From: Omnitrophica bacterium RIFCSPLOWO2_01_FULL_45_10b
Lineage (GTDB): Bacteria; Omnitrophota; Omnitrophia; Omnitrophales; Danuiimicrobiaceae
Reading direction: 5' to 3'
Length of the DNA: 36,362 nucleotides
NCBI GenBank assembly: GCA_001804205.1
Contig: MHFM01000009.1
Coordinates: 61,588-97,949, forward strand
The notes under the pieces were generated by a model. That model had not been told where the DNA came from. It searched no databases and saw only the letters and a program-made list of their open reading frames with translations. Below are positions 2,106 through 26,015 of this stretch, piece by piece. The translations under genes and the position numbers were made by a program. The first letter of the stretch is position 1, and the number at the start of each line of letters is the position of its first letter.

Positions 2106-2792
2106 GTGCAACCTTCTTCCGGTATTCTTTATTTGGTAGCAACGCCCATCGGGAATTTAGAGGATATTACACTGCGCGCCGTCCGCCTTCTACGCGAAGT
2201 TGATTTTGTGATCTGCGAAGATTCCAGGCACAGCGGAATACTGCTCAAGCATTTGGAAATTAAAAAACCCCTGCGCGTGTTTCACGATCATACGCAAAAA
2301 GTAAAATTGGATTCACTCATCCAAGAACTGCAGAACGGTTCTCAGGCGGCCTATGTGACAGACGCAGGGACACCGCTTGTTTCTGATCCGGGTTTTGCTT
2401 TGGTTCAAGCGGCTTTGAACGCCGGCGTTCGGATTGAATCCATTCCAGGCCCAACGGCTTTTGTTGCCGCTTTAATCGTGAGCGGGCTTCCTACCCATGT
2501 GTTTACGTTTGTGGGTTATCTTCCTCAAAAGGAAAAGGCAAAGCGCGATGCGCTGCAAAATCTTGAAGGGGAGCAGAGAACATTGATTTTTTACGAGTCT
2601 CCTTACCGAGTTTTAAAAACATTGAAGGCAATGTTGGATATTTTTGGCGATCGCCGCGCTTCGGTTTCACGGGAACTCACTAAGAAATTCGAAGAAACGG
2701 TGCGAGGAAGGCTTTCTGAAATTTTGGCTTATTTTGAAAAAAAGAAAATTTTGGGTGAGTGGGCCATTGTGGTATCGGGCAAGGAAGATTAA
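2106..2792 (+). CDS. rsmI: 16S rRNA (cytidine1402-2'-O)-methyltransferase
   Basis: Tetrapyrrole-methylase-fold N-terminus LYLVATPIGNLEDITLRA and a conserved DAGTPLVSDPG segment. GTG start, 228 aa. Confidence 0.85.
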   Translation: MQPSSGILYLVATPIGNLEDITLRAVRLLREVDFVICEDSRHSGILLKHLEIKKPLRVFHDHTQKVKLDSLIQELQNGSQAAYVTDAGTPLVSDPGFALVQAALNAGVRIESIPGPTAFVAALIVSGLPTHVFTFVGYLPQKEKAKRDALQNLEGEQRTLIFYESPYRVLKTLKAMLDIFGDRRASVSRELTKKFEETVRGRLSEILAYFEKKKILGEWAIVVSGKED

Positions 2793-2795
2793 CCA

Positions 2796-3527
2796 ATGAA
2801 GCGTATTGCGATTTTTGTTTCCGGTTCCGGAACGAATATGGAAAATATCGCGCGGCATGTAAAATCGGGGGTGCTCACTTGTGATATCGCGCTTATCGTA
2901 TCCGACAATCCAAATGCTTCGGCGCTTAAGCGCGCCGCGAATCTTGGCCTAGAAACCTTCGTCATCGAACGTAAGGATTTTAAGTCCAAAGTGGATTTTG
3001 ATGTTAAAATAATGGAGAAGCTTAAGGAAAAGAAGATAGAAGCCGTCATTTTGGCGGGTTACATGCGGATTTTGAGCCCCGAATTTGTTCGCACTTGGCA
3101 GTGGTGTGTTTTGAATATTCATCCAAGCCTTCTTCCAAAGTATCCTGGAGCCCATGCCATTCGGGATGTCTGGGAGGCAAAAGAGAAAGAAACCGGGGTT
3201 ACCGTTCATTTTGTTACCGAGGATGTAGATTGCGGCCCTATTATTTTACAGCGCAAGGTTGCGATCAAACCAGACGATACGTTGGAGACGCTTGAAGCAC
3301 GTGTGCATGCAGCGGAGTATGAACTTTATCCGAAAGCCTTGGAGCTTTTTCTTGCCGGCAAATTGAAGGTAACTGGCAAAACCGTCATTGCGAGCCCCGT
3401 CCGCCCAGCGGAACGGCGGATCCGCCGGTCTGTTAGGCGGAAAGGGGCGAAGCAATCTCCGAGATCGCTTCGTCGCTTTACTCCTCGCGATGACGGCGGA
3501 TCAGCTTCCGGAGGCGTTCAACAATGA
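2796..3527 (+). CDS. purN: Phosphoribosylglycinamide formyltransferase with a ~45-aa repeat-encoded C-terminal tail
   Basis: [12 protein letters not shown]-terminus and NIHPSLLP formyltransferase core. The conserved core ends near ...LKVTGKTV. The rest ([11 protein letters not shown]...[14 protein letters not shown]) is a translation of the palindromic element at 3384-3494. The stop overlaps the next start (ATGA, 3524-3527). Confidence 0.85.
3384..3494. repeat. GTCAT...ATGAC palindromic element (111 bp) lying inside the purN reading frame
   Basis: The termini GTCATTGCGAG (3384-) and CTCGCGATGAC (-3494) are inverted repeats. Internal GAAGCAATC / GATCGCTTCG motifs are shared with the copy at 4597-4733. 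Confidence 0.75.
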
Positions 3528-3838: not shown

Positions 3839-4582
3839 ATGGCACTCAGAGAAGAATTTGAACGAACAGGAAATTGGCTGTTCCGGTGGCGAAGTTATTT
3901 ACCGCTGGTCTTAATGGCGTTGTTTCTTCTGGCGTTGAAGCGCTTTGGTTATCCTCAGCATAGCCATCAGTTAGATCAAATATGGGAAATTTTTTGTTTC
4001 TTGATTTCCTTCCTAGGCCTTGGCATTCGTATGTATGCGGTGGGTTGCGCACCGCGGGGGACTTCAGGCCGCAATGTTAAAGAACAGAGGGCAGCCTTTT
4101 TGAATACAACCGGCGTTTATTCTCTCATACGCCATCCGCTTTATTTTGGGAATTTTTTGATTTGGGTTGGGATTGTCCTCTCGCTTCGGTCCTGGTGGTT
4201 TACGGCCATGACCATTTTGGCGTTTTGGCTTTATTACGAAAAAATCATGTTTGCCGAGGAAGAATTTTTGCGCAGGGAATATGATGATCAATTTCTGAAA
4301 TGGGCCAGCAAAACACCCGCTTTTTTCCCGGTGAAATTGAACCTGTGGCAGAAGCCCGAGCTGTCTTTTAAACTAAAAAATGCTTTGCGGCGCGAATATT
4401 CCGGATTTTTTGCCATCATTTCGGTGTATGCGGTTTTGGATATTTTTGAGGAATTGATCACGACCGGCGAGTTAAGCATTGATATCATGTGGAGCATTCT
4501 ATTTGTGTGCGGGCTCGCAATCTATTTAGTTCTCATGTTTTTGAAGAAAAAAACAGATTTCTTGAATGTTCAAGGAAGATAG
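3839..4582 (+). CDS. Isoprenylcysteine carboxyl methyltransferase / phospholipid methyltransferase-family membrane protein
   Basis: Polytopic membrane protein with the RHPLYFGNFLIWVG motif typical of the ICMT/PEMT family. Confidence 0.6.
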   Translation: MALREEFERTGNWLFRWRSYLPLVLMALFLLALKRFGYPQHSHQLDQIWEIFCFLISFLGLGIRMYAVGCAPRGTSGRNVKEQRAAFLNTTGVYSLIRHPLYFGNFLIWVGIVLSLRSWWFTAMTILAFWLYYEKIMFAEEEFLRREYDDQFLKWASKTPAFFPVKLNLWQKPELSFKLKNALRREYSGFFAIISVYAVLDIFEELITTGELSIDIMWSILFVCGLAIYLVLMFLKKKTDFLNVQGR

Positions 4583-4596
4583 CGCTATGAGGAACA

Positions 4597-4733
4597 GTCA
4601 TTGCGAGCGACTGAAGGGAGCGAAGCAATCCCATTTATTTATTTTTTTCCATAGGATCGGGATAGCCCCTGTGGGGCAATCTCGGGGATCGCTTCGTCCC
4701 CGCCACAAAACGTTGGCGGGTCCTCGTGATGAC
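4597..4733. repeat. GTCAT...ATGAC palindromic element (137 bp), intergenic
   Basis: GTCATTGCGAGCG at 4597 and CTCGTGATGAC ending at 4733. It contains the GAAGCAATC and GATCGCTTCGTC motifs and the CCCCGCCACAAAACGTTGGCGGG hairpin. The track ORF 4566-4772 is a translation of it. Confidence 0.75.
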
Positions 4734-4752
4734 GGAAGGCAGGAGGGAGTAA

Positions 4753-6132
<1,380 letters not shown>

Positions 6133-6140
6133 CTTAAACG

Positions 6141-6452
6141 ATGCGCCGGTCCCGCCTTTTTTGGTTGCTTGCCGTGGTTGTGATTGCCACCTTAATTTAT
6201 CTGCCGAGCTTTTCTAAATACTTGAAGCTCAAACAAAAGGAGAGCGATCTCGAGCGCGAAATTAACCGTCTTCAGTCTGAAATTTCCGAGATCCGGAAGG
6301 AAGAACTTCTTTTAAAAACTGACTTGACCACACTTGAAACTACCGCACGCGAAGTATTAGGCCTCGTGAAACCGGGGGAAGTGGTTTATAAAGTTGTCGA
6401 AGAGGAAATTCCAGAAGAAGAAATCCTTCCAGTCAAAGCAACCTCCCGCTAG
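6141..6452 (+). CDS. Septum formation initiator (FtsB/DivIC family)
   Basis: Single N-terminal TM, a coiled-coil, and the ...AREVLGLVKPGEVVY motif typical of FtsB/DivIC. Sits immediately downstream of eno. Confidence 0.65.
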   Translation: MRRSRLFWLLAVVVIATLIYLPSFSKYLKLKQKESDLEREINRLQSEISEIRKEELLLKTDLTTLETTAREVLGLVKPGEVVYKVVEEEIPEEEILPVKATSR

Positions 6453-6466
6453 AGGACTTTGATTCC

Positions 6467-6494
6467 TTGCATTTCCGAGAAACATGACTATAAT
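6467..6494 (+). promoter_or_regulatory. Strong sigma70-type promoter (TTGCAT-N16-TATAAT)
   Basis: TTGCAT at 6467-6472, a 16-nt spacer, and TATAAT at 6489-6494. It lies 57 nt upstream of the displaced tRNA 5' fragment. Confidence 0.6.
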
Positions 6495-6550
6495 AAATCC
6501 CTGCTTTGATTCCAGGGGTTTTCCTATGGATTTGCTTTTTTAAGATTGAT

Positions 6551-6637
6551 CGCGGGGTGGAGCCCCGTAAAAGCGCTTCGCGCTCACGGGGCCGCGTGAT
6601 GAGCGACGAAGGAGCGAATTTTACGCGGCAGCCTGGT
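6551..6637 (+). pseudogene. Displaced 5' fragment of the initiator-type tRNA-Met (nt 1-21), itself interrupted by a 66-nt hairpin insert
   Basis: CGCGGGGTGGAGC (6551-6563) and AGCCTGGT (6630-6637) together equal nt 1-21 of the intact tRNA at 6906. The intervening 66 nt form GCCCCGT...ACGGGGC and CCGCGT...ACGCGG stems. Confidence 0.7.
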
Positions 6638-6641
6638 GAAA

Positions 6642-6944
6642 ATGAATGAACATTATGTTTATGTTTTATGTAGTCAGAAGGACAATGAATGGTATATTGG
6701 CCAGACGGATCGGCACCCAGAAGAAAGGCTTCGAGAACATAATGCTGGTCAAATGGTCTCAACCAAATTACGACGTCCTTTGGAATTGATTTACTATGAA
6801 ATGTATCGACATAAGCAAGATGCTTTGGGCCGCGAAAAATTTCTGAAGAGCGGCGCAGGGCATAATTTTGTTCGAAAGCAACTTAGAAATTTTTTGAATC
6901 ATCATCGCGGGGTGGAGCAGCCTGGTAGCTCGCAAGGCTCATAA
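6642..6944 (+). CDS. Small GIY-YIG (URI-domain) nuclease-family protein
   Basis: YVYVLCS...WYIGQT...R..EHN...E motif pattern of stand-alone GIY-YIG proteins. Start is ATG 6642 (or GTG 6636). There is no stop before the tRNA, so the last 13 codons and the stop lie inside tRNA 6906-6982. Confidence 0.8.
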   Translation: MNEHYVYVLCSQKDNEWYIGQTDRHPEERLREHNAGQMVSTKLRRPLELIYYEMYRHKQDALGREKFLKSGAGHNFVRKQLRNFLNHHRGVEQPGSSQGS

Positions 6945-6982
6945 CCTTGAGGTCAGGGGTTCAAATCCCCTCCCCGCTACCA
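6906..6982 (+). tRNA. tRNA-Met (anticodon CAU), initiator-like
   Basis: Hand-folded cloverleaf: acceptor CGCGGGG/CCCCGCT, D arm GAGC/GCTC, anticodon arm CAAGG-CTCATAA-CCTTG, T arm AGGGG-TTCAAAT-CCCCT, CCA encoded. The 5' end is identical to E. coli tRNA-fMet (CGCGGGGTGGAGCAGCCTGGTAGCTCG) and positions 1:72 are unpaired (C:U). There are only two consecutive G:C pairs at the bottom of the anticodon stem. Confidence 0.9.
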
Positions 6983-7111
6983 TTTCTTTCATTTATTTGC
7001 CAGGCCTGAAAGGCCTGGCACTTTCAGAGGTAGAAATGATTGCGGGAAGTGGTCATCCCGTAGAGGAACGTCAAGTTCCTCACGGGAAGTCCTGCCGCAA
7101 AAGCGGCAGGG

Positions 7112-7132
7112 CAAATCCCCTCCCCGCTACCA
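7112..7132 (+). repeat. Exact 21-nt duplicate of the tRNA-Met 3' end (displaced 3' fragment, att-like)
   Basis: CAAATCCCCTCCCCGCTACCA at 7112-7132 is identical to 6962-6982. The 129 nt between them contain the stems GCCAGGCCT/AGGCCTGGC, CCCGT.GAGGAAC/GTTCCTCACGGG and CCTGCCGC/GCGGCAGG. Confidence 0.85.
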
Positions 7133-7146
7133 TACATACTGGAGAT

Positions 7147-7194
7147 GAAGGCTTTGGAAGGGAATACCAACCGACCAAAGCCTTCTTCTCTTTT
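7147..7194 (+). terminator. Rho-independent terminator candidate
   Basis: An 11-bp stem, GAAGGCTTTGG (7147-7157) / CCAAAGCCTTC (7175-7185), followed by TTCTCTTTT. Confidence 0.55.
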
Positions 7195-7251
7195 GGAACT
7201 ACCTGGATTGCGCCGCTTCCTGTTGGCTTACTTCGAAACGTTGAAAAACGC

Positions 7252-8163
7252 ATGAAAAAGACCGTTTATCTCATTGAATACGCTGTCATTCGTTCCGTTT
7301 CTTTTTTTCTTAATCTCTTACCTCTTTCCTTAGCCCTTTACCTTGCAAGGCCCATTGGTTTTTTGTTGTTTCTTTTGCTGGGCCGGTCCCGCCGGATGGC
7401 GCTTGATAATATTCGTCAGGCGTACTCATCAGAAAAGTCTGAATCTGAAATTCGCGAAATTGCTCGAGGTGCTTTCATACATCTAACTGAATTTGGAGTT
7501 GAATGGTTGTCCATGCCTCGAATGATCCGGCACCCAGAGCATTATTTGGTTACCGTTCACCGCGGGGATCAAGTTCAAGCGGCCCTTCAAAAAGGGAAAG
7601 GCGCCATTGTGCTTGTATGTCATACCGGAAATTGGGAAATCATGGCTTTGATGGGAGGTTTGCTGGTGGCAAGACCTGTGGGCGCTTCTGTTTACGCTCT
7701 CGCAAGGCCGCTCAAAAATCCTTATCTTTATGAGTATGCGCTCCGTCTTCGTGGGGGAATGGGGTTAAAAAGCATTGAGAAAGGGGGCGGAGTTCGAGAA
7801 ACATTAAATTGCCTCAAAGAGAATGGAATCGTTTGTATTTTGATGGATCAACGCGTGAGCGAAGGGAGCATTGAAACCAATTTTTTCGGCCGACCGGCGC
7901 TCACGACAAGCCTTCCGATTATTGCTGCTTTGCGGCTCGGAACACCTGTTTTTTTTAATTTCCTTCATAGGACGAATGATTGTCATTACACCATGAGTGT
8001 CGAAGGGCCGTTATCGATTGAGTCTACCGGCAATGTTCGAACAGATATCCAGGTGAATACCCAACGATTTGTCGATCGCATCGAAACCGAAATTCGTAAG
8101 AAACCGATCCATTGGCTTTGGATGCACAACCGCTGGCGTCCTCAACACGGATCGAAGGATTAA
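7252..8163 (+). CDS. Lipid A biosynthesis lauroyl/myristoyl acyltransferase-family protein (LpxL/HtrB-like)
   Basis: N-terminal TM plus the HTGNWE catalytic motif and the MDQR... segment of the LpxL family. The track ORF starts at 6997, but its first 255 nt cover the tRNA fragment, hairpins and terminator. The first credible start is ATG 7252 (MKKTVYLIEY). Confidence 0.8.
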   Translation: MKKTVYLIEYAVIRSVSFFLNLLPLSLALYLARPIGFLLFLLLGRSRRMALDNIRQAYSSEKSESEIREIARGAFIHLTEFGVEWLSMPRMIRHPEHYLVTVHRGDQVQAALQKGKGAIVLVCHTGNWEIMALMGGLLVARPVGASVYALARPLKNPYLYEYALRLRGGMGLKSIEKGGGVRETLNCLKENGIVCILMDQRVSEGSIETNFFGRPALTTSLPIIAALRLGTPVFFNFLHRTNDCHYTMSVEGPLSIESTGNVRTDIQVNTQRFVDRIETEIRKKPIHWLWMHNRWRPQHGSKD

Positions 8164-12835: not shown

Positions 12836-12863
12836 TTTATGCCTTTAGGAGATTTTCCTTCAT

Positions 12864-12936
12864 GGCGGCGTAGCTCAGTTGGTAGAGCAAGGGACTCATA
12901 AGCCCTGGGTCAGAGGTTCGATTCCTCTCGCCGCCA
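12864..12936 (+). tRNA. tRNA with CAU anticodon (elongator Met or lysidine-dependent Ile2); CCA not encoded
   Basis: Acceptor GGCGGCG/CGCCGCC, D arm GCTC/GAGC, anticodon loop CTCATAA (A31:G39 mismatch at the bottom of the stem), T arm AGAGG-TTCGATT-CCTCT. Confidence 0.88.
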
Positions 12937-13066
12937 TTTTTAATTCCTTTGGAATGAAAAAGACTGCGGAGGAATCGAAGTGAGCCCCGTAGATGCGACT
13001 TATTAAGGAGCATCTTGCTACGGGGCGAGTGGCCGACCTGGAGTGAGCGCAGCGAACGTAAGGCGC

Positions 13067-13097
13067 CGATTCCTCTCGCCGCCACCATTTTTATTCC
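13067..13097 (+). repeat. Duplicate of the tRNA 3' end plus flank (displaced 3' fragment, here with CCA)
   Basis: CGATTCCTCTCGCCGCCA (13067-13084) equals 12919-12936. It is followed by CCA and TTTTTATTCC, compared with TTTTTAATTCC after the intact tRNA. The intervening ~120-130 nt carry GAGCCCCGTAG...CTACGGGGC hairpins and an inverted copy (GCGGAGGAATCG) of the T-arm segment. Confidence 0.8.
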
Positions 13098-14592: not shown

Positions 14593-16557
14593 ATGGAAAA
14601 TCAGGATTCAGGGCCAAATAAGGCCAATTTTAAAGAGAGTTCTCCCACAAAGAAATCTCCGCTCAAGAAACCCGCGCTTTCTAAAAAAGGACCTGATTCC
14701 GAACGCCGCCGCCTGATTGCTTTTCTTGTCATTCCTCTTATTTTCTTTGTCCTGCTTCAAATTTTTGTACTTCCCAAGATGGAGATGAAACAGCTTTCGT
14801 ACAGCGTTTTTTACGAAATGCTGATTAACAATCCTTCAACAGGTGAAATCGAGTCGGCAGAATTGGTTGAAACAACCGTTCGCGGCAAGTTAAAGGACGG
14901 GTCGTATTTTCAGGTCAATACACCAGTGAATGATTTGGAGTTGATTCCTCTTTTGCGCCGAAATGTCAAAAGTTTCAATGTCAACCCCCCGCAGGTATTT
15001 TGGCGCAATTTAATTTATTCCGTTCTCCCCGTTTTACTTTTAATTGGTTTTTTTTGGTTTTTTGTTTACCGGGGCGTCCAGCAAGGCGGTGGGAAAATTT
15101 TTTCATTCGGCAAGTCGCGCGCCAAATTATCCGGTGACCGGGAACGTGTTACGTTTAAAGACGTGGCTGGAGTGGATGAAGCCAAAGAAGAGCTTCAGGA
15201 AATCATCGAATTTTTAAAGGATCCAGGAAAATTTCAAAAACTTGGCGGAAAAATTCCAAAAGGCGTGTTGCTTTTAGGGCCTCCCGGAACAGGCAAAACA
15301 CTTTTGGCAAAAGCGGTGGCCGGAGAGGCGGATGTGCCGTTTTATTCGATCAGCGGATCCGATTTTGTGGAAATGTTTGTGGGCGTGGGCGCTGCGCGCG
15401 TGCGCGATCTTTTTGAGCAAGGTAAGCACGCTCCAAAAACAAGCGGGCGCGGAGCCATTATCTTTATCGATGAAATTGATGCGGTAGGCCGCCAACGTTT
15501 TGCCGGCATCGGCGGCGGCCATGATGAGCGTGAGCAGACTTTGAACGCACTTTTAGTGGAAATGGATGGCTTTGATAGCCATGCCGGAATTATTTTGATC
15601 GGTGCCACGAATCGGCCCGACGTTTTAGACCCCGCGCTTCTTCGGCCCGGGCGATTCGACCGGCAAATTGTTGTGGATCGGCCGGATATGAAGGGCCGCG
15701 AAGCCATTTTAAAAATTCATACCCGGAATGTGAAACTAGCAAAAGATGCCGATTTGTTAAAACTTGCGCGTTCTACGCCGGGTTTTTCGGGAGCCGATCT
15801 TGCAAATTTGGTGAATGAAGCCGCTTTGCTTTCCGCCCGTTATAATAAAAATGATGTGGCGCAAGCCGAACTTGAAAGCTCGATTGAACGGGTAATGGCC
15901 GGACCTGAGCGTAAGTCCCGCGTGATTTCAAAAGATGAAAAGGAAATTGTATCGGTTCATGAATCAGGCCATGCGATTCTTACCTTACTTCTTATGGGTT
16001 CCACCGATCAATTGCATAAGGTTTCAATTATTCCGCGCGGCCATGCAGCGCTTGGCTACACGCTTCATCTCCCCCTTGAGGATCGCTATCTGGTTCGAGA
16101 AAAGGAATTGATGGATAAAATTACCGTGCTTTTGGGAGGCCGGGTGGCGGAAGAGTTGGTTTTTAAGCAGATTACAACAGGGGCACACAATGATCTTGAA
16201 GTGGCCACCGGTTTCGCGCAGCGAATGGTTTGTGAATATGGAATGAGCAAGCGGCTTGGGCATTTGACATTCGGAAAGCAAGACCGCGAAGTTTTTCTGG
16301 GCCGAGACCTGATGCGTGAAAAAGATTATTCCGAAAGCACCGCGATTGTCATTGATGAAGAAGTCCGCCGGATTGTAGATGAATGTTATCAACGGGCCAA
16401 AAAGGTTCTGCAAGAGAATTTGGATAAGCTCAAAAAACTTTCAGACCGGCTTTTAGAAAAAGAAGTGCTGGATAGCGAAGAGGTTAAACAAATCATTGGG
16501 CTCAATCACGTCTCGAAAGTAGAACAGGCAAATTCACCCGGCCCGGCAAATCAGTAG
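14593..16557 (+). CDS. ftsH: ATP-dependent zinc metalloprotease FtsH
   Basis: Two N-terminal TMs, Walker A GPPGTGKT, Walker [12 protein letters not shown] region, and the HESGHA zinc motif. Confidence 0.95.
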
Positions 16558-25250: not shown

Positions 25251-25417
25251 TCCGCCACAAAGCGTGGCGAGACCCGTCCAAAACAACGCTTTGCGGACGG
25301 ACCTCGCCGCGTTGTTTGGCGGGCAGGGGCAGAGCAACGGTTTTGCCCCGAGCAAAAACGCTCGGGATCGACCGCGAGGAGTCCTGGGCCGCCGGAGCTG
25401 ATCGGAATAAACTATCT

Positions 25418-25492: not shown

Positions 25493-25534
25493 TTGATTTC
25501 TCAGCTCCGGCGGAACACGGATAAACCGTGGGTT

Positions 25535-25559
25535 GGAGGTTCAAGTCCTCTCGCCAGCT
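25535..25559 (+). pseudogene. 3' fragment of the same disrupted tRNA (T arm + acceptor strand)
   Basis: GGAGG-TTCAAGT-CCTCT-CGCCAGC-T. The preceding CACGG-ATAAA-CCGTG hairpin has only a 5-nt loop, so no valid anticodon arm exists. Confidence 0.45.
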
Positions 25560-25560
25560 A

Positions 25561-25668
25561 GTTTAGTGGTTAGTGATCAGTGGTTAGTATTTAGCGAAAA
25601 GCCAAAAAGCGAAATGGTTCTAGCTACTTGCCACTAATCACTAGTCACTAGTTACTAATCACTACTCA
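25561..25668. repeat. Long imperfect hairpin built from tandem heptamers (NNTTAGT x5 / CACTAAT-type x5)
   Basis: Left arm: GTTTAGT GGTTAGT GATCAGT GGTTAGT ATTTAGC. Right arm: CACTAAT CACTAGT CACTAGT TACTAAT CACTACT. The arms are roughly complementary around a ~26-nt loop. Confidence 0.55.
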
Positions 25669-25669
25669 C

Positions 25670-25752
25670 GGGGAGTTACCCAAGTGGACAAAGGGGACAG
25701 ACTGTAAATCTGTTGGCTTCGGCCTTCAGTGGTTCGAATCCACTACTCCCCA
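25670..25752 (+). tRNA. tRNA-Tyr (anticodon GUA), long variable arm, CCA not encoded
   Basis: Acceptor GGGGAGT/ACTCCCC, anticodon arm ACAGA-CTGTAAA-TCTGT, variable arm GGCTTCGGCC, T arm AGTGG-TTCGAAT-CCACT. Confidence 0.9.
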
Positions 25753-26015
25753 TGTTTATGGTGAATGGTTCTCCGCCAAAGGACGGATCCGCCTCCGGTG
25801 GAGAACTCTTTACTTCCAGCTATCTATAGGTAAAATACATTTAATTCTTTTAATGCATGTGCCGAAACAATAGAAACCAAGTGAACGGCGGTCAATTTAA
25901 GATTTTTCCGGAACTTGCTGCATCCTTAAGTTCTGTCTTGCGAACAAGTTAGATAGAAATAAAGGGTGCAAATTCTTTGCGGCAAAGTCCGGCCGGTGAT
26001 TCACAAACTATTTAA

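Follow-up and report, generated by a model that had tools for sequence, protein, structure and literature searches.

What is a nuclease gene doing between an initiator tRNA and the ancestral promoter of that tRNA, and how did it come to end inside the tRNA itself? Both questions are raised by a stretch of 36,362 nt (hereafter the window, in whose coordinates all positions are given) from contig MHFM01000009.1 of Omnitrophica bacterium RIFCSPLOWO2_01_FULL_45_10b, where an open reading frame (ORF) for a minimal GIY-YIG nuclease runs into the gene for initiator tRNA-Met (tRNA-fMet). On balance, we consider it probable that the locus is an occupied allele of tRNA-fMet, in which a dispensable cassette of the selfish type, made up of a palindromic module and the nuclease gene, sits between promoter and tRNA, and that linkage to tRNA genes marks the family as a whole. 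The cassette is dispensable, it is flanked by a duplicated 5' region of the tRNA, and it is a member of a large family of tRNA-linked elements; it is on these observations that the reading is built.

A probable occupied allele of the initiator tRNA gene

The anatomy of the locus was obtained by reading positions 6300-7400 and by a repeat search. Its 5' part and the tRNA comprise the following features:

6467-6494, + strand: ancestral promoter of tRNA-fMet, TTGCAT-N16-TATAAT (read from the sequence; homologous sites in relatives)
6495-6550, + strand: ancestral pre-tRNA leader (aligns with the leaders of empty alleles)
6551-6563, + strand: 5' fragment of tRNA-fMet, nt 1-13 (exact match to 6906-6918)
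6563-6629, strand unassigned: two-hairpin palindromic module (covariance model, covariation, motif clustering)
6630-6637, + strand: 5' fragment of tRNA-fMet, nt 14-21 (GCAGCCTGGT at 6628-6637 repeats 6917-6926)
6642-6944, + strand: ORF of a minimal GIY-YIG (UPF0213/Slx1-like) nuclease, 100 aa (Pfam PF01541, homologues, AlphaFold2 (AF2) model)
6891-6905, + strand: second copy of the leader, now coding for the last nuclease residues ahead of the tRNA (repeat search)
6906-6982, + strand: intact initiator-type tRNA-Met(CAT) (ARAGORN; Rfam tRNA, 61.1 bits; identical to the tRNA of the empty allele L094)

The gene order eno (enolase), ftsB (DivIC/FtsB), nuclease ORF, tRNA-fMet is common to the window and its relatives (cited here by locus number, L), and at least 10 divergent metagenome-assembled genomes (MAGs) keep the synteny eno-ftsB-cassette-tRNA. 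Relatives without the cassette were traced through homologues of the neighbouring DivIC protein, which yielded empty alleles in L094, L096 and L097 to set beside the occupied alleles of the window, L010, L012-L017, L027, L028 and L032; the uninterrupted tRNA-fMet alleles that an initial annotation of this DNA had predicted do therefore exist. In L094, eno-ftsB is followed by TTGCAT-N17-TATAAT, a leader of ~43 nt (about 45 nt across the three) and a tRNA-fMet identical to that of the window, while L096 (-10 element TACAAT) and L097 (-35 element TTGCAA) are equivalent, each with an intact tRNA-fMet. Presence and absence of the cassette are polymorphic at this conserved site, and the two states interleave by host similarity: the enolases of the empty genomes are 82, 76 and 70% identical to that of the window, those of the occupied genomes 58-77%, and by enolase and DivIC alike many occupied genomes stand no nearer to the window than the empty ones do. 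Such interleaving implies that the cassette has been gained or lost repeatedly.

The same relatives help to locate the ancestral gene. A site of the form TTGCAT/TTGCAA-N16/17-TATAAT is kept 5' of tRNA-fMet in empty (L094, L096, L097) and occupied (L013, L016) alleles alike, so that the promoter at 6467-6494, first described as near-consensus, is conserved, but its -35 hexamer TTGCAT agrees with the consensus at only three of six positions and a consensus promoter scan did not list it. Because promoter and leader of the occupied alleles align with those of the empty ones, the 5' fragment can be taken as the ancestral start of the tRNA-fMet gene, lying below its ancestral promoter. Each of the fMet-type relatives carries such a fragment 5' of the ORF (9-27 nt of exact match), continuing to tRNA nt 33/34 in L014 and L028; in the window, the repeat search bears out the two pieces originally described, nt 1-13 and nt 14-21, split by 66 nt (6564-6629). 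The leader is repeated too, with 82% identity over 28 nt between 6891-6918 and 6536-6563, a match that covers the last 15 leader nt (6536-6550), and the end of the ORF in L013 (TTTTTTGATATGCAT) resembles the leader of L094 (TTTTCTTGATACGC). From this leader repeat and the fragments of L014 and L028 it follows that a direct duplication flanks the cassette, which would extend roughly from leader position -15/-20 to tRNA nt 33.

Four tRNA genes were found in the window. The one at 6906-6982, recovered by ARAGORN and Rfam just as first described, is likely to be an initiator by its sequence features, though an incomplete one by the rule of three G-C pairs. It has the CAU anticodon and the mismatch at 1:72, where C1 faces U72 (5' CGCGGGG, 3' strand CCCCGCT), but pairs 29-31:39-41 are A29-U41, G30-C40 and G31-C39 (CAAGG/CCTTG), two of them G-C only; in L014 the anticodon stem of tRNA-fMet is GGG/CCC. 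Misassembly, a concern raised at the outset, was ruled out, since the locus is identical in at least seven assemblies (over an 851-nt region, seven contigs that come from different samples and assemblers show 100% identity, and two further contigs 98.8-99.8%) and the 5' fragment recurs in 10 divergent relatives.

One pair of relatives suggests how alleles may be exchanged. The flanks of L027 and L032 are 92-100% identical per 50-nt segment (~95% over the whole alignment), and within them the ORF forms an island of divergence (L027 1049-1295; 68-86%) whose edges fall at the module and at the tRNA. The changes in the ORF are mostly synonymous, 53% of synonymous sites being different, and the two modules differ at 2 of 70 positions, which form a compensatory pair. 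Recombinational replacement by a diverged allele, guided by conserved arms, would produce an island of this kind.

A nuclease gene without a stop codon of its own

As initially annotated, the ORF lacks its own stop and runs 39 nt into the tRNA to a TAA (6942-6944) in the anticodon loop, and its last 13 codons and stop come from the tRNA gene. The start, originally placed exactly where the 5' fragment ends, needs correction to ATG 6642, which homologues and gene callers favour over the other possibility, GTG 6636. Pfam PF01541 matches residues 6-72 with 56.8 bits against a cut-off of 22.6 (E 2.8e-15), and across 20-37 homologues the catalytic residues Y7, Y18, G20 and E65 never vary, and R29 and H33 hardly do. 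The predicted protein is an 88-aa catalytic domain with a 12-aa tail encoded by the tRNA; Pfam and the AF2 model (pLDDT 92.7) give no further domain, neither a sequence-specific DNA-binding domain beyond the catalytic core nor the C-terminal RING/PHD zinc finger of Slx1. Profile matches in the PDB are to UPF0213 only (1zg2, 9.5e-8; 1ywl, 7e-7), and the top folds in Foldseek are UPF0213 (1zg2) and the nuclease domain of Slx1 (7cq3, TM 0.63, rmsd 1.7 Å), with rmsd values ranging from 1.7 to 2.8 Å and I-TevI reaching merely E 1.6. The modelled fold is thus closest to UPF0213/Slx1 and unlike I-TevI, and because the protein consists of catalytic domain and tail without a zinc finger, it is not an Slx1 orthologue. 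A review has grouped the UPF0213 proteins YhbQ and YazA with Slx1, a structure-selective nuclease (PMC7017083). No NCBIfam model matches the window nuclease, whose nearest named homologues are in Candidatus Omnitrophota MAGs.

Around 20 homologues with 57-72% amino-acid identity share the tail RGVEQPGSSQGS, which is the translation of tRNA-fMet nt 1-36. Among relatives, the distance from the end of the domain to tRNA nt 1 varies between 0 and 8 codons and the ORF of L028 enters the tRNA in a different frame; what is conserved is therefore the tight abutment and not a specific peptide. This abutment leaves no intergenic room for a separate tRNA promoter in any relative, and in that respect the initial claim that the tRNA has no obvious one of its own holds, but a weak promoter-like site does lie inside the ORF (6671-6698; matching at 9 of 12 positions and having TG), a resemblance for which the WYIG codons are partly responsible. 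The ratio of nonsynonymous to synonymous substitution (dN/dS) is ~0.1 where measurable (0.11 for L027 vs L032, 0.07-0.08 for the window vs L014 and L016), which indicates that the ORF is under purifying selection and the protein maintained by it; in the other pairs synonymous sites are saturated and the nonsynonymous difference (pN) is ~0.2. The 36-kb window holds one copy of the nuclease gene, a weak GIY-like tblastn match at 15478-15552 lying inside ftsH and being taken as chance.

An intron-encoded ORF was ruled out for the window, where no ribozyme is present (RF00028, the group I intron, finds no match) and the distance from fragment to ATG is just 4-25 nt. ORF-less group I introns do stand at U33/C34 of tRNA-fMet in L013 (952-1190; RF00028, 70.7 bits) and L028 (3073-3290; 60.3 bits), and there the nuclease ORF passes through exon 1 into the intron. 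Rather than the product of a recent double invasion, the layout of the locus is old and phylum-wide.

A family tied to tRNA genes

A scan of species-representative genomes in a genome collection gave at least 554 bacterial loci, and the genomic context was analysed at the best 80 of these. A same-strand tRNA ends within 400 nt 5' of the ORF at 43 of the 80 loci, against one on the opposite strand, and at a further 16 loci a same-strand tRNA overlaps the ORF or lies within 150 nt 3' of it. The number of tRNA isotypes involved is also 16. In Patescibacteria, Verrucomicrobiota and others, the cassette usually follows directly on the CCA of a same-strand tRNA of any isotype, and 39 of 44 upstream junctions have a CGTAAA-type motif within 12 nt of the tRNA end, typically as CCA followed at once by CGTAAAA. 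Further GIY-YIG genes adjoining tRNA fragments, anticipated in the initial annotation, are found among these loci: L039 and L047 repeat 19 nt of the tRNA 3' end behind the ORF, and in L089 the upstream side shows 31 nt from the 5' part of an elongator-type tRNA-Met and the downstream side that tRNA in full. Two nuclease genes occur within a few kb of each other at nine of the 80 loci.

At the L047 locus (2704-3330, in a MAG labelled Gammaproteobacteria), the tRNA-Met 3' end stands three times, and the cassette lies inside a unit that resembles the 129-nt insert of the window described below, with a strand antisense to the T-arm, hairpins and a 3' fragment with CCA.

The family is nearly absent from viruses, with one partial match among 2.9 million viral contigs (IMG/VR), and the nuclease has no match in PHROG; a phage origin was rejected on these grounds. 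In full-text literature searches, neither tRNA-linked minimal GIY-YIG cassettes nor CGTAAAA/CACGTGG palindromes were seen to be described; all that came up was SegB of T4, the grouping of YhbQ and YazA with Slx1, and a passing note on the horizontal transfer of GIY-YIG genes from Patescibacteria.

The palindromic partner of the nuclease

In the window, the first hairpin of the module (hp1) has the form CCCCGTAAAAG-stem-CACGGGG and the second (hp2) the form CCGCGTGATG-stem-ATTTTACGCGG, the latter being approximately the reverse complement of the hp1 consensus; in orthologues, hp1 is CCCCGTAAAG-stem-loop-CACGGGG and hp2 is CCACGTGATG-stem-GNRA-CATTTTACGTGG. Every relative whose context was fetched carries a two-hairpin element of this kind inside its 5' fragment. 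A covariance model built on the module (CM R1) scores 63.4 bits on the + strand of the window module and 41.8 bits on the - strand, matching both because the hp2 consensus is the reverse complement of that of hp1, and it finds nothing at E <= 0.1 in the empty alleles L094, L096 and L097. Compensatory changes affect 15 of 23 predicted pairs in 10 orthologues. Across 63 distinct modules, 93.5% of stem cells are Watson-Crick and, with one conserved position excluded, G.U (12) is about as common as A.C (11) on the ORF strand. Were the structure one of transcribed RNA, an excess of G.U would be expected. The balance of G.U and A.C and the construction as an inverse repeat both speak for a palindrome of DNA that can serve on either strand, rather than an RNA motif.

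The position of the module within the 5' fragment is not fixed. It lies at 9/10 in L012, L013 and L016, at 13/14 in the window and L017, at 19/20 in L010, L027, L032, L028 and L059, and at 27/28 in L014 and in a second copy in L028; these four sites do not track the two protein subgroups, and modules have therefore moved or inserted more than once. Across the best 80 loci the association with the nuclease persists: CGTAAAR, YTTTACG and CACGTGG motifs cluster within 300 nt 5' of the GIY-YIG ORF, a CM R1 module lies 5' of the ORF at ~58 of the 80 loci, and the order of the hairpins is reversed in many phyla. By this distribution, the 66-nt hairpin is no unrelated invader but a conserved palindromic partner of the GIY-YIG family in several phyla.

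Rfam 15, searched with the window and 20 loci, returned only tRNA and group I intron, its matches at E <= 5 being chance-level. A hammerhead core (UGAUGA..GAA in hp2 of the window) was rejected, as it is not kept in the orthologues and has no Rfam match, and a resemblance between the ORF start (TTTTACGT in some phyla) and the module motif was dropped because it is not universal. In L012, the tRNA-fMet terminator is followed at once (4370-4802) by hairpin units of two kinds that alternate in a tandem array; these units have ACGGGGCAACCACG in common with the module and look like ORF-less module derivatives amplified in place.

A separate event on the 3' side

The 3' side of the locus, and a second tRNA gene elsewhere in the window, show a further pattern of insertion and duplication:

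6983-7111, + strand: ORF-less hairpin insert of 129 nt (E2; fold z, inverted repeats I1 and I10)
7112-7133, + strand: displaced copy of the tRNA 3' end, C56 to CCA (exact 22-nt repeat of 6962-6983)
7142-7196, + strand: probable original terminator of the tRNA transcription unit (stem, then CTTTTGG)
12863-13087, + strand: second case of the 3' pattern, a tRNA(CAT) 5' of tilS with insert and copy (ARAGORN, repeat and fold analysis)

The 129 nt of hairpins first noticed behind the tRNA fold strongly when compared with shuffled sequences (z = -7.8 for 7030-7135; -7.8 to -8.3 overall). Three hairpins can be told apart in them (6998-7020; 7057-7086, of the module type; 7091-7110), and between the first two, at 7042-7052, lies a strand complementary to the tRNA 3' end. 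They also carry a CCCGTA..ACGGG motif and match CM R1 weakly but significantly (21.5 bits, E 0.004). The displaced tRNA end, given initially as 21 nt at 7112-7132, is indeed an exact copy with CCA, but it is 22 nt long and the fragment probably reaches back to ~7106; a 3-nt deletion in the T-loop (AGGG-CAAATCCC) is common to this fragment and the 3' fragment of L096. The terminator, too, stands as a stem followed by a T-rich run, but with arms of 16 nt (7142-7157 and 7175-7190; 94% complementary) in place of the 11-bp stem first reported, and a terminator scan did not list it because of its 17-nt loop. Insert and tRNA-end copy are also present in L016 and L010, the sequences between the two tRNA-end copies differing among L016, L010 and the window. 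By contrast, L012, L013 and L028 have a plain CCA and terminator (E2 is absent from L094 and L097 as well), and the 3' event is therefore separate and lineage-specific.

The pattern recurs at the tRNA(CAT) at 12863-12937, probably tRNA-Ile2 because it lies directly upstream of tilS. This gene, intact and without an encoded CCA, is followed by a 129-nt hairpin insert (12938-13066), behind which the last 18 nt of the gene (12920-12937) stand a second time, again from C56 and now with CCA (13067-13087). The inserts behind the two tRNAs have the same length; the second matches CM R1 marginally (13.3 bits, E 0.27). Neither 129-nt insert contains an integrase or recombinase gene or any ORF. E2 with its tRNA 3'-end copy would thus go back to an ORF-less relative that inserted in a separate and lineage-specific event, as apparently also happened at the tilS-adjacent tRNA(CAT). 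The anatomy drawn in the initial annotation therefore stands nearly base for base, and its history in part: of the two or more invasions it proposed, the 3' insert is a separate event, but the 66-nt hairpin is the family's own partner and the arrangement is old.

A classical miniature inverted-repeat transposable element (MITE) was rejected, since E2 and its counterpart E3 share motif and length only, their inverted ends match the local tRNA and not each other, and the modules differ between loci, with no near-identical copies showing a fixed target duplication. An integrase-bearing island was likewise rejected for the 129-nt inserts, in which the 3' direct repeat is present (22 nt; 18 nt) and the integrase absent.

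Some neighbouring observations may be recorded here. In the cassette-free L096 (3056-3310), the intact tRNA-fMet is separated by an ORF of 61 aa from a tRNA 3' fragment whose first position is exactly nt 34. In the window, the lipid A acyltransferase gene at its longest (6997-8163) begins at TTG 6997 and takes in hairpin insert, displaced tRNA end and terminator alike, and callers on related contigs likewise begin the gene within the same region (375 aa); because the Pfam domain begins only after ~7254, this annotated N-terminus is probably wrong, and cassettes can thus mislead gene callers by having a hairpin region (here 6997-7250) absorbed into an adjoining gene. At 25493-25670, a tRNA-Thr is followed by a hairpin, the 3' fragment of another tRNA (GGAGGTTCAAGTCCTCTCGCCAGCTA, ~25533-25561), an odd stretch full of ACTAGT/CACTAAT-like words and a tRNA-Tyr. 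A GC-rich dispersed hairpin repeat (GGTTCTCCGCCAAAGG...) occurs at 25767-25795, 25252-25281, 4699-4723 and 5575-5599; it resembles the 3' insert after tRNA-fMet in L016 and forms a second small repeat family of these genomes.

Weighing the explanations

The locus might instead have arisen by a single nested insertion, in which tRNA-fMet was split at nt 33/34 by an element bearing the ORF and a full replacement tRNA, leaving 6551... and ...7132 as the original halves and all that lies between them as foreign DNA. The 5' fragments of L014 and L028 end at nt 33/34, the 3' fragment of L096 begins exactly at nt 34 and shares the T-loop deletion of the window fragment, and U33/C34 is the group I intron site of L013 and L028; moreover, if the duplicated 5' parts of an allele of this kind recombined with each other, L096 could be the result. 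However, cassettes are accompanied by a plain CCA and terminator, with no 3' fragment, in L012, L013 and L028; the 3' duplicate of the window begins at C56 and not at nt 34; L016, L010 and the window differ in sequence between the two copies; and an equivalent 129-nt insert, with a copy from C56, stands at a different tRNA, so that 3' inserts must arise on their own. We judge a single nested insertion unlikely. Of the ancestral gene initially drawn from the promoter through 6551 to 7132, the 5' start holds by the alignment of leader and promoter, while for its far end the nt 34 fragment of L096 speaks in favour and the relatives without a 3' fragment speak against. Quite unlikely, to our mind, is a domesticated gene, inherited vertically and no longer mobile, which would be co-expressed with tRNA-fMet and serve the host in a role such as DNA repair at a highly transcribed locus and whose tRNA fragments would be fossil scars. 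Synteny in at least 10 divergent MAGs, intact ORFs with their catalytic residues, a dN/dS of ~0.1 and the single copy in the window would all suit such a gene, but not the empty alleles in genomes nearer to the window than many occupied ones, the divergence island confined to the ORF of L027/L032, the four different sites of the module, or the cassettes beside 16 tRNA isotypes in other phyla, nine of 80 loci having two copies. It is highly improbable that the module is an RNA regulator in a 5' untranslated region (an attenuator, a protein-binding leader or a processing signal) of nuclease translation or tRNA maturation. The module does always lie between promoter or tRNA and ORF on the coding-strand side, its stems covary, hp2 resembles a small terminator, and the fragment of tRNA nt 1-7 can pair alternatively with CCCCG of hp1; yet the two hairpins are reverse complements matched by the covariance model on both strands, G.U is not preferred over A.C, hairpin order is inverted in many phyla, the position within the 5' fragment varies, ORF-less copies occur after tRNAs and in tandem arrays, and no Rfam family matches.

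The preferred reading, an occupied allele with a dispensable cassette, has points to answer as well. Phylum-wide synteny fits long vertical inheritance equally well, and the empty alleles could have lost a cassette precisely, by way of the direct repeats, instead of being sites that were never invaded. The recombination signature comes from one genome pair, and the stem pairs were counted in an alignment fitted to the model. Hp2 followed by ATTTT looks terminator-like and would oppose read-through, the promoter-like site at 6671-6698 could drive the tRNA independently, and any target within tRNA nt 1-21 would stand both in the intact tRNA and in the 5' fragment. Finally, we infer rather than observe co-transcription, cleavage by RNase P and rescue by transfer-messenger RNA (tmRNA).

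How the cassette might work

If the locus is indeed an occupied allele, the left copy of the duplication would be a decaying 5' fragment that bears the module, and the right copy the start of the functional tRNA. The nuclease gene, having lost its stop or never had one, would pass through the duplicated leader and end at the anticodon-loop UAA. One transcript from the old tRNA promoter most likely yields both nuclease and tRNA-fMet, an arrangement favoured by the strict co-orientation with tRNAs throughout the family and the lack of intergenic space; cassettes in other phyla may use the transcription units of their adjoining tRNA genes. A cut by RNase P at 6906 would turn the nuclease message into a non-stop mRNA, and full-length protein would therefore come only from unprocessed precursors, keeping the nuclease scarce. 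The competition between RNase P processing and translation that was suggested initially is plausible. The nuclease probably acts on DNA structures, whether hairpins and cruciforms of the module or tRNA-gene DNA, and not on a long recognition sequence, although the palindromes beside the ORF are only suggestive as to cleavage of branched or hairpin DNA. Breaks made in this way could drive spread by recombination and the replacement of alleles, with tRNA and module serving as homology arms.

A bolder proposal, which we put forward as doubtful, is that module and nuclease form a new class of mobile DNA, defined by an Slx1-like nuclease that reads shape, insertion at tRNA helix junctions, hijacking of promoters, mobilisation in trans of ORF-less palindromes and, in Omnitrophota, a coupling of dosage. 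The DNA shapes recognised would be the element's own paired palindromes and tRNA-gene DNA able to form a cloverleaf; insertion sites would lie after nt 73/76, in the T-loop at 55/56, and at 9/10, 13/14, 19/20, 27/28 and 33/34; and the overlap of ORF and initiator tRNA in Omnitrophota would couple nuclease dosage to pre-tRNA processing.

Were these cassettes what we take them to be, a widespread selfish element would have gone unnoticed in Omnitrophota, Patescibacteria (the Candidate Phyla Radiation, CPR) and Verrucomicrobiota, with at least 554 loci, and the uncharacterised minimal nucleases of the UPF0213/YhbQ type would gain a first genomic context and a candidate substrate. The window would offer a natural case of an essential bacterial tRNA that supplies the last 13 codons and the stop of a protein gene, making it possible to ask whether tRNA 5' processing competes with translation for a shared transcript and whether a potentially toxic nuclease is kept in check by tmRNA. 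Furthermore, cassettes would explain many of the tRNA fragments and hairpin-rich spacers that lie beside tRNA genes in MAGs.

Relation to known systems

The free-standing GIY-YIG homing endonucleases of T4-like phages include SegB, encoded in the tRNA gene cluster of T4 (PMC2330249). The cassette resembles the SegB type in having an intron-free GIY-YIG gene among or next to tRNA genes, in its presence/absence polymorphism at a conserved site and in a possible local recombination tract (one pair, L027/L032). It differs in that its protein amounts to the 88-aa catalytic domain alone, lacks a DNA-binding domain and has a fold nearer to Slx1/UPF0213 than to I-TevI, in being chromosomal and almost absent from viral contigs, and in being paired with a palindromic module, flanked by tRNA duplications and overlapping the tRNA. 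With UPF0213 (YhbQ of E. coli, YazA of B. subtilis; 1zg2, 1ywl) and Slx1, the nuclease shares profile matches down to 1e-7, a TM-score of ~0.63 and catalytic residues; it is unlike Slx1 in having neither RING/PHD zinc finger nor Slx4 partner, and unlike both in being unrecognised by NCBIfam models. Slx1 and YhbQ are single-copy host genes with no known linkage to tRNAs or flanking palindromes.

Integrative elements in tRNA genes, as Williams reportedly described in 2002, carry a replacement tRNA 3' end and are bounded by an attL/attR duplication. The order of intact tRNA, insert and displaced 3' copy from the T-loop (6962-6982/7112-7132; 12920-12937/13067-13084) is the same in the window, but the inserts are of 129 nt, lack an integrase and contain a strand complementary to the duplicated tRNA end, and in the main cassette it is the tRNA's 5' side that is duplicated, the classical case in mirror image. 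Mobile DNA palindromes that are recognised in hairpin form are familiar from REP/REPIN-RAYT systems, from the ends of IS200/IS605 elements and their MITEs, and from integron attC sites. These share with the module short imperfect palindromes with conserved unpaired bases, inverted pairs, covarying stems and ORF-less copies or arrays; in contrast to them, the cassettes encode a GIY-YIG nuclease and not an HUH/Y1 transposase or tyrosine recombinase, are tied to tRNA genes and show no fixed target duplication.

In collaborative homing, a free-standing endonuclease acts together with an ORF-less group I intron, as F-CphI does with the intron of cyanophage psbA. Similarly, in L013 and L028 the tRNA-fMet beside the nuclease gene has an ORF-less group I intron in its anticodon loop, and the duplicated 5' fragment ends at the intron site U33/C34; the window, however, has no intron, and the link to the intron is positional only. 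Mitochondrial transcripts punctuated by tRNAs obtain stops through processing, and bacterial non-stop mRNAs are rescued by tmRNA. Here too an ORF ends inside a same-strand tRNA and 5' processing would remove its stop, but the stop is a true UAA in the anticodon loop of a bacterial initiator, the overlap is phylum-wide and there is no completion by polyadenylation. None of the systems compared joins a domain-only Slx1-like nuclease, paired palindromes, obligatory linkage to tRNA genes and an ORF that ends in the initiator tRNA, and with structure-guided insertion demonstrated the cassettes could constitute a distinct class of mobile DNA.

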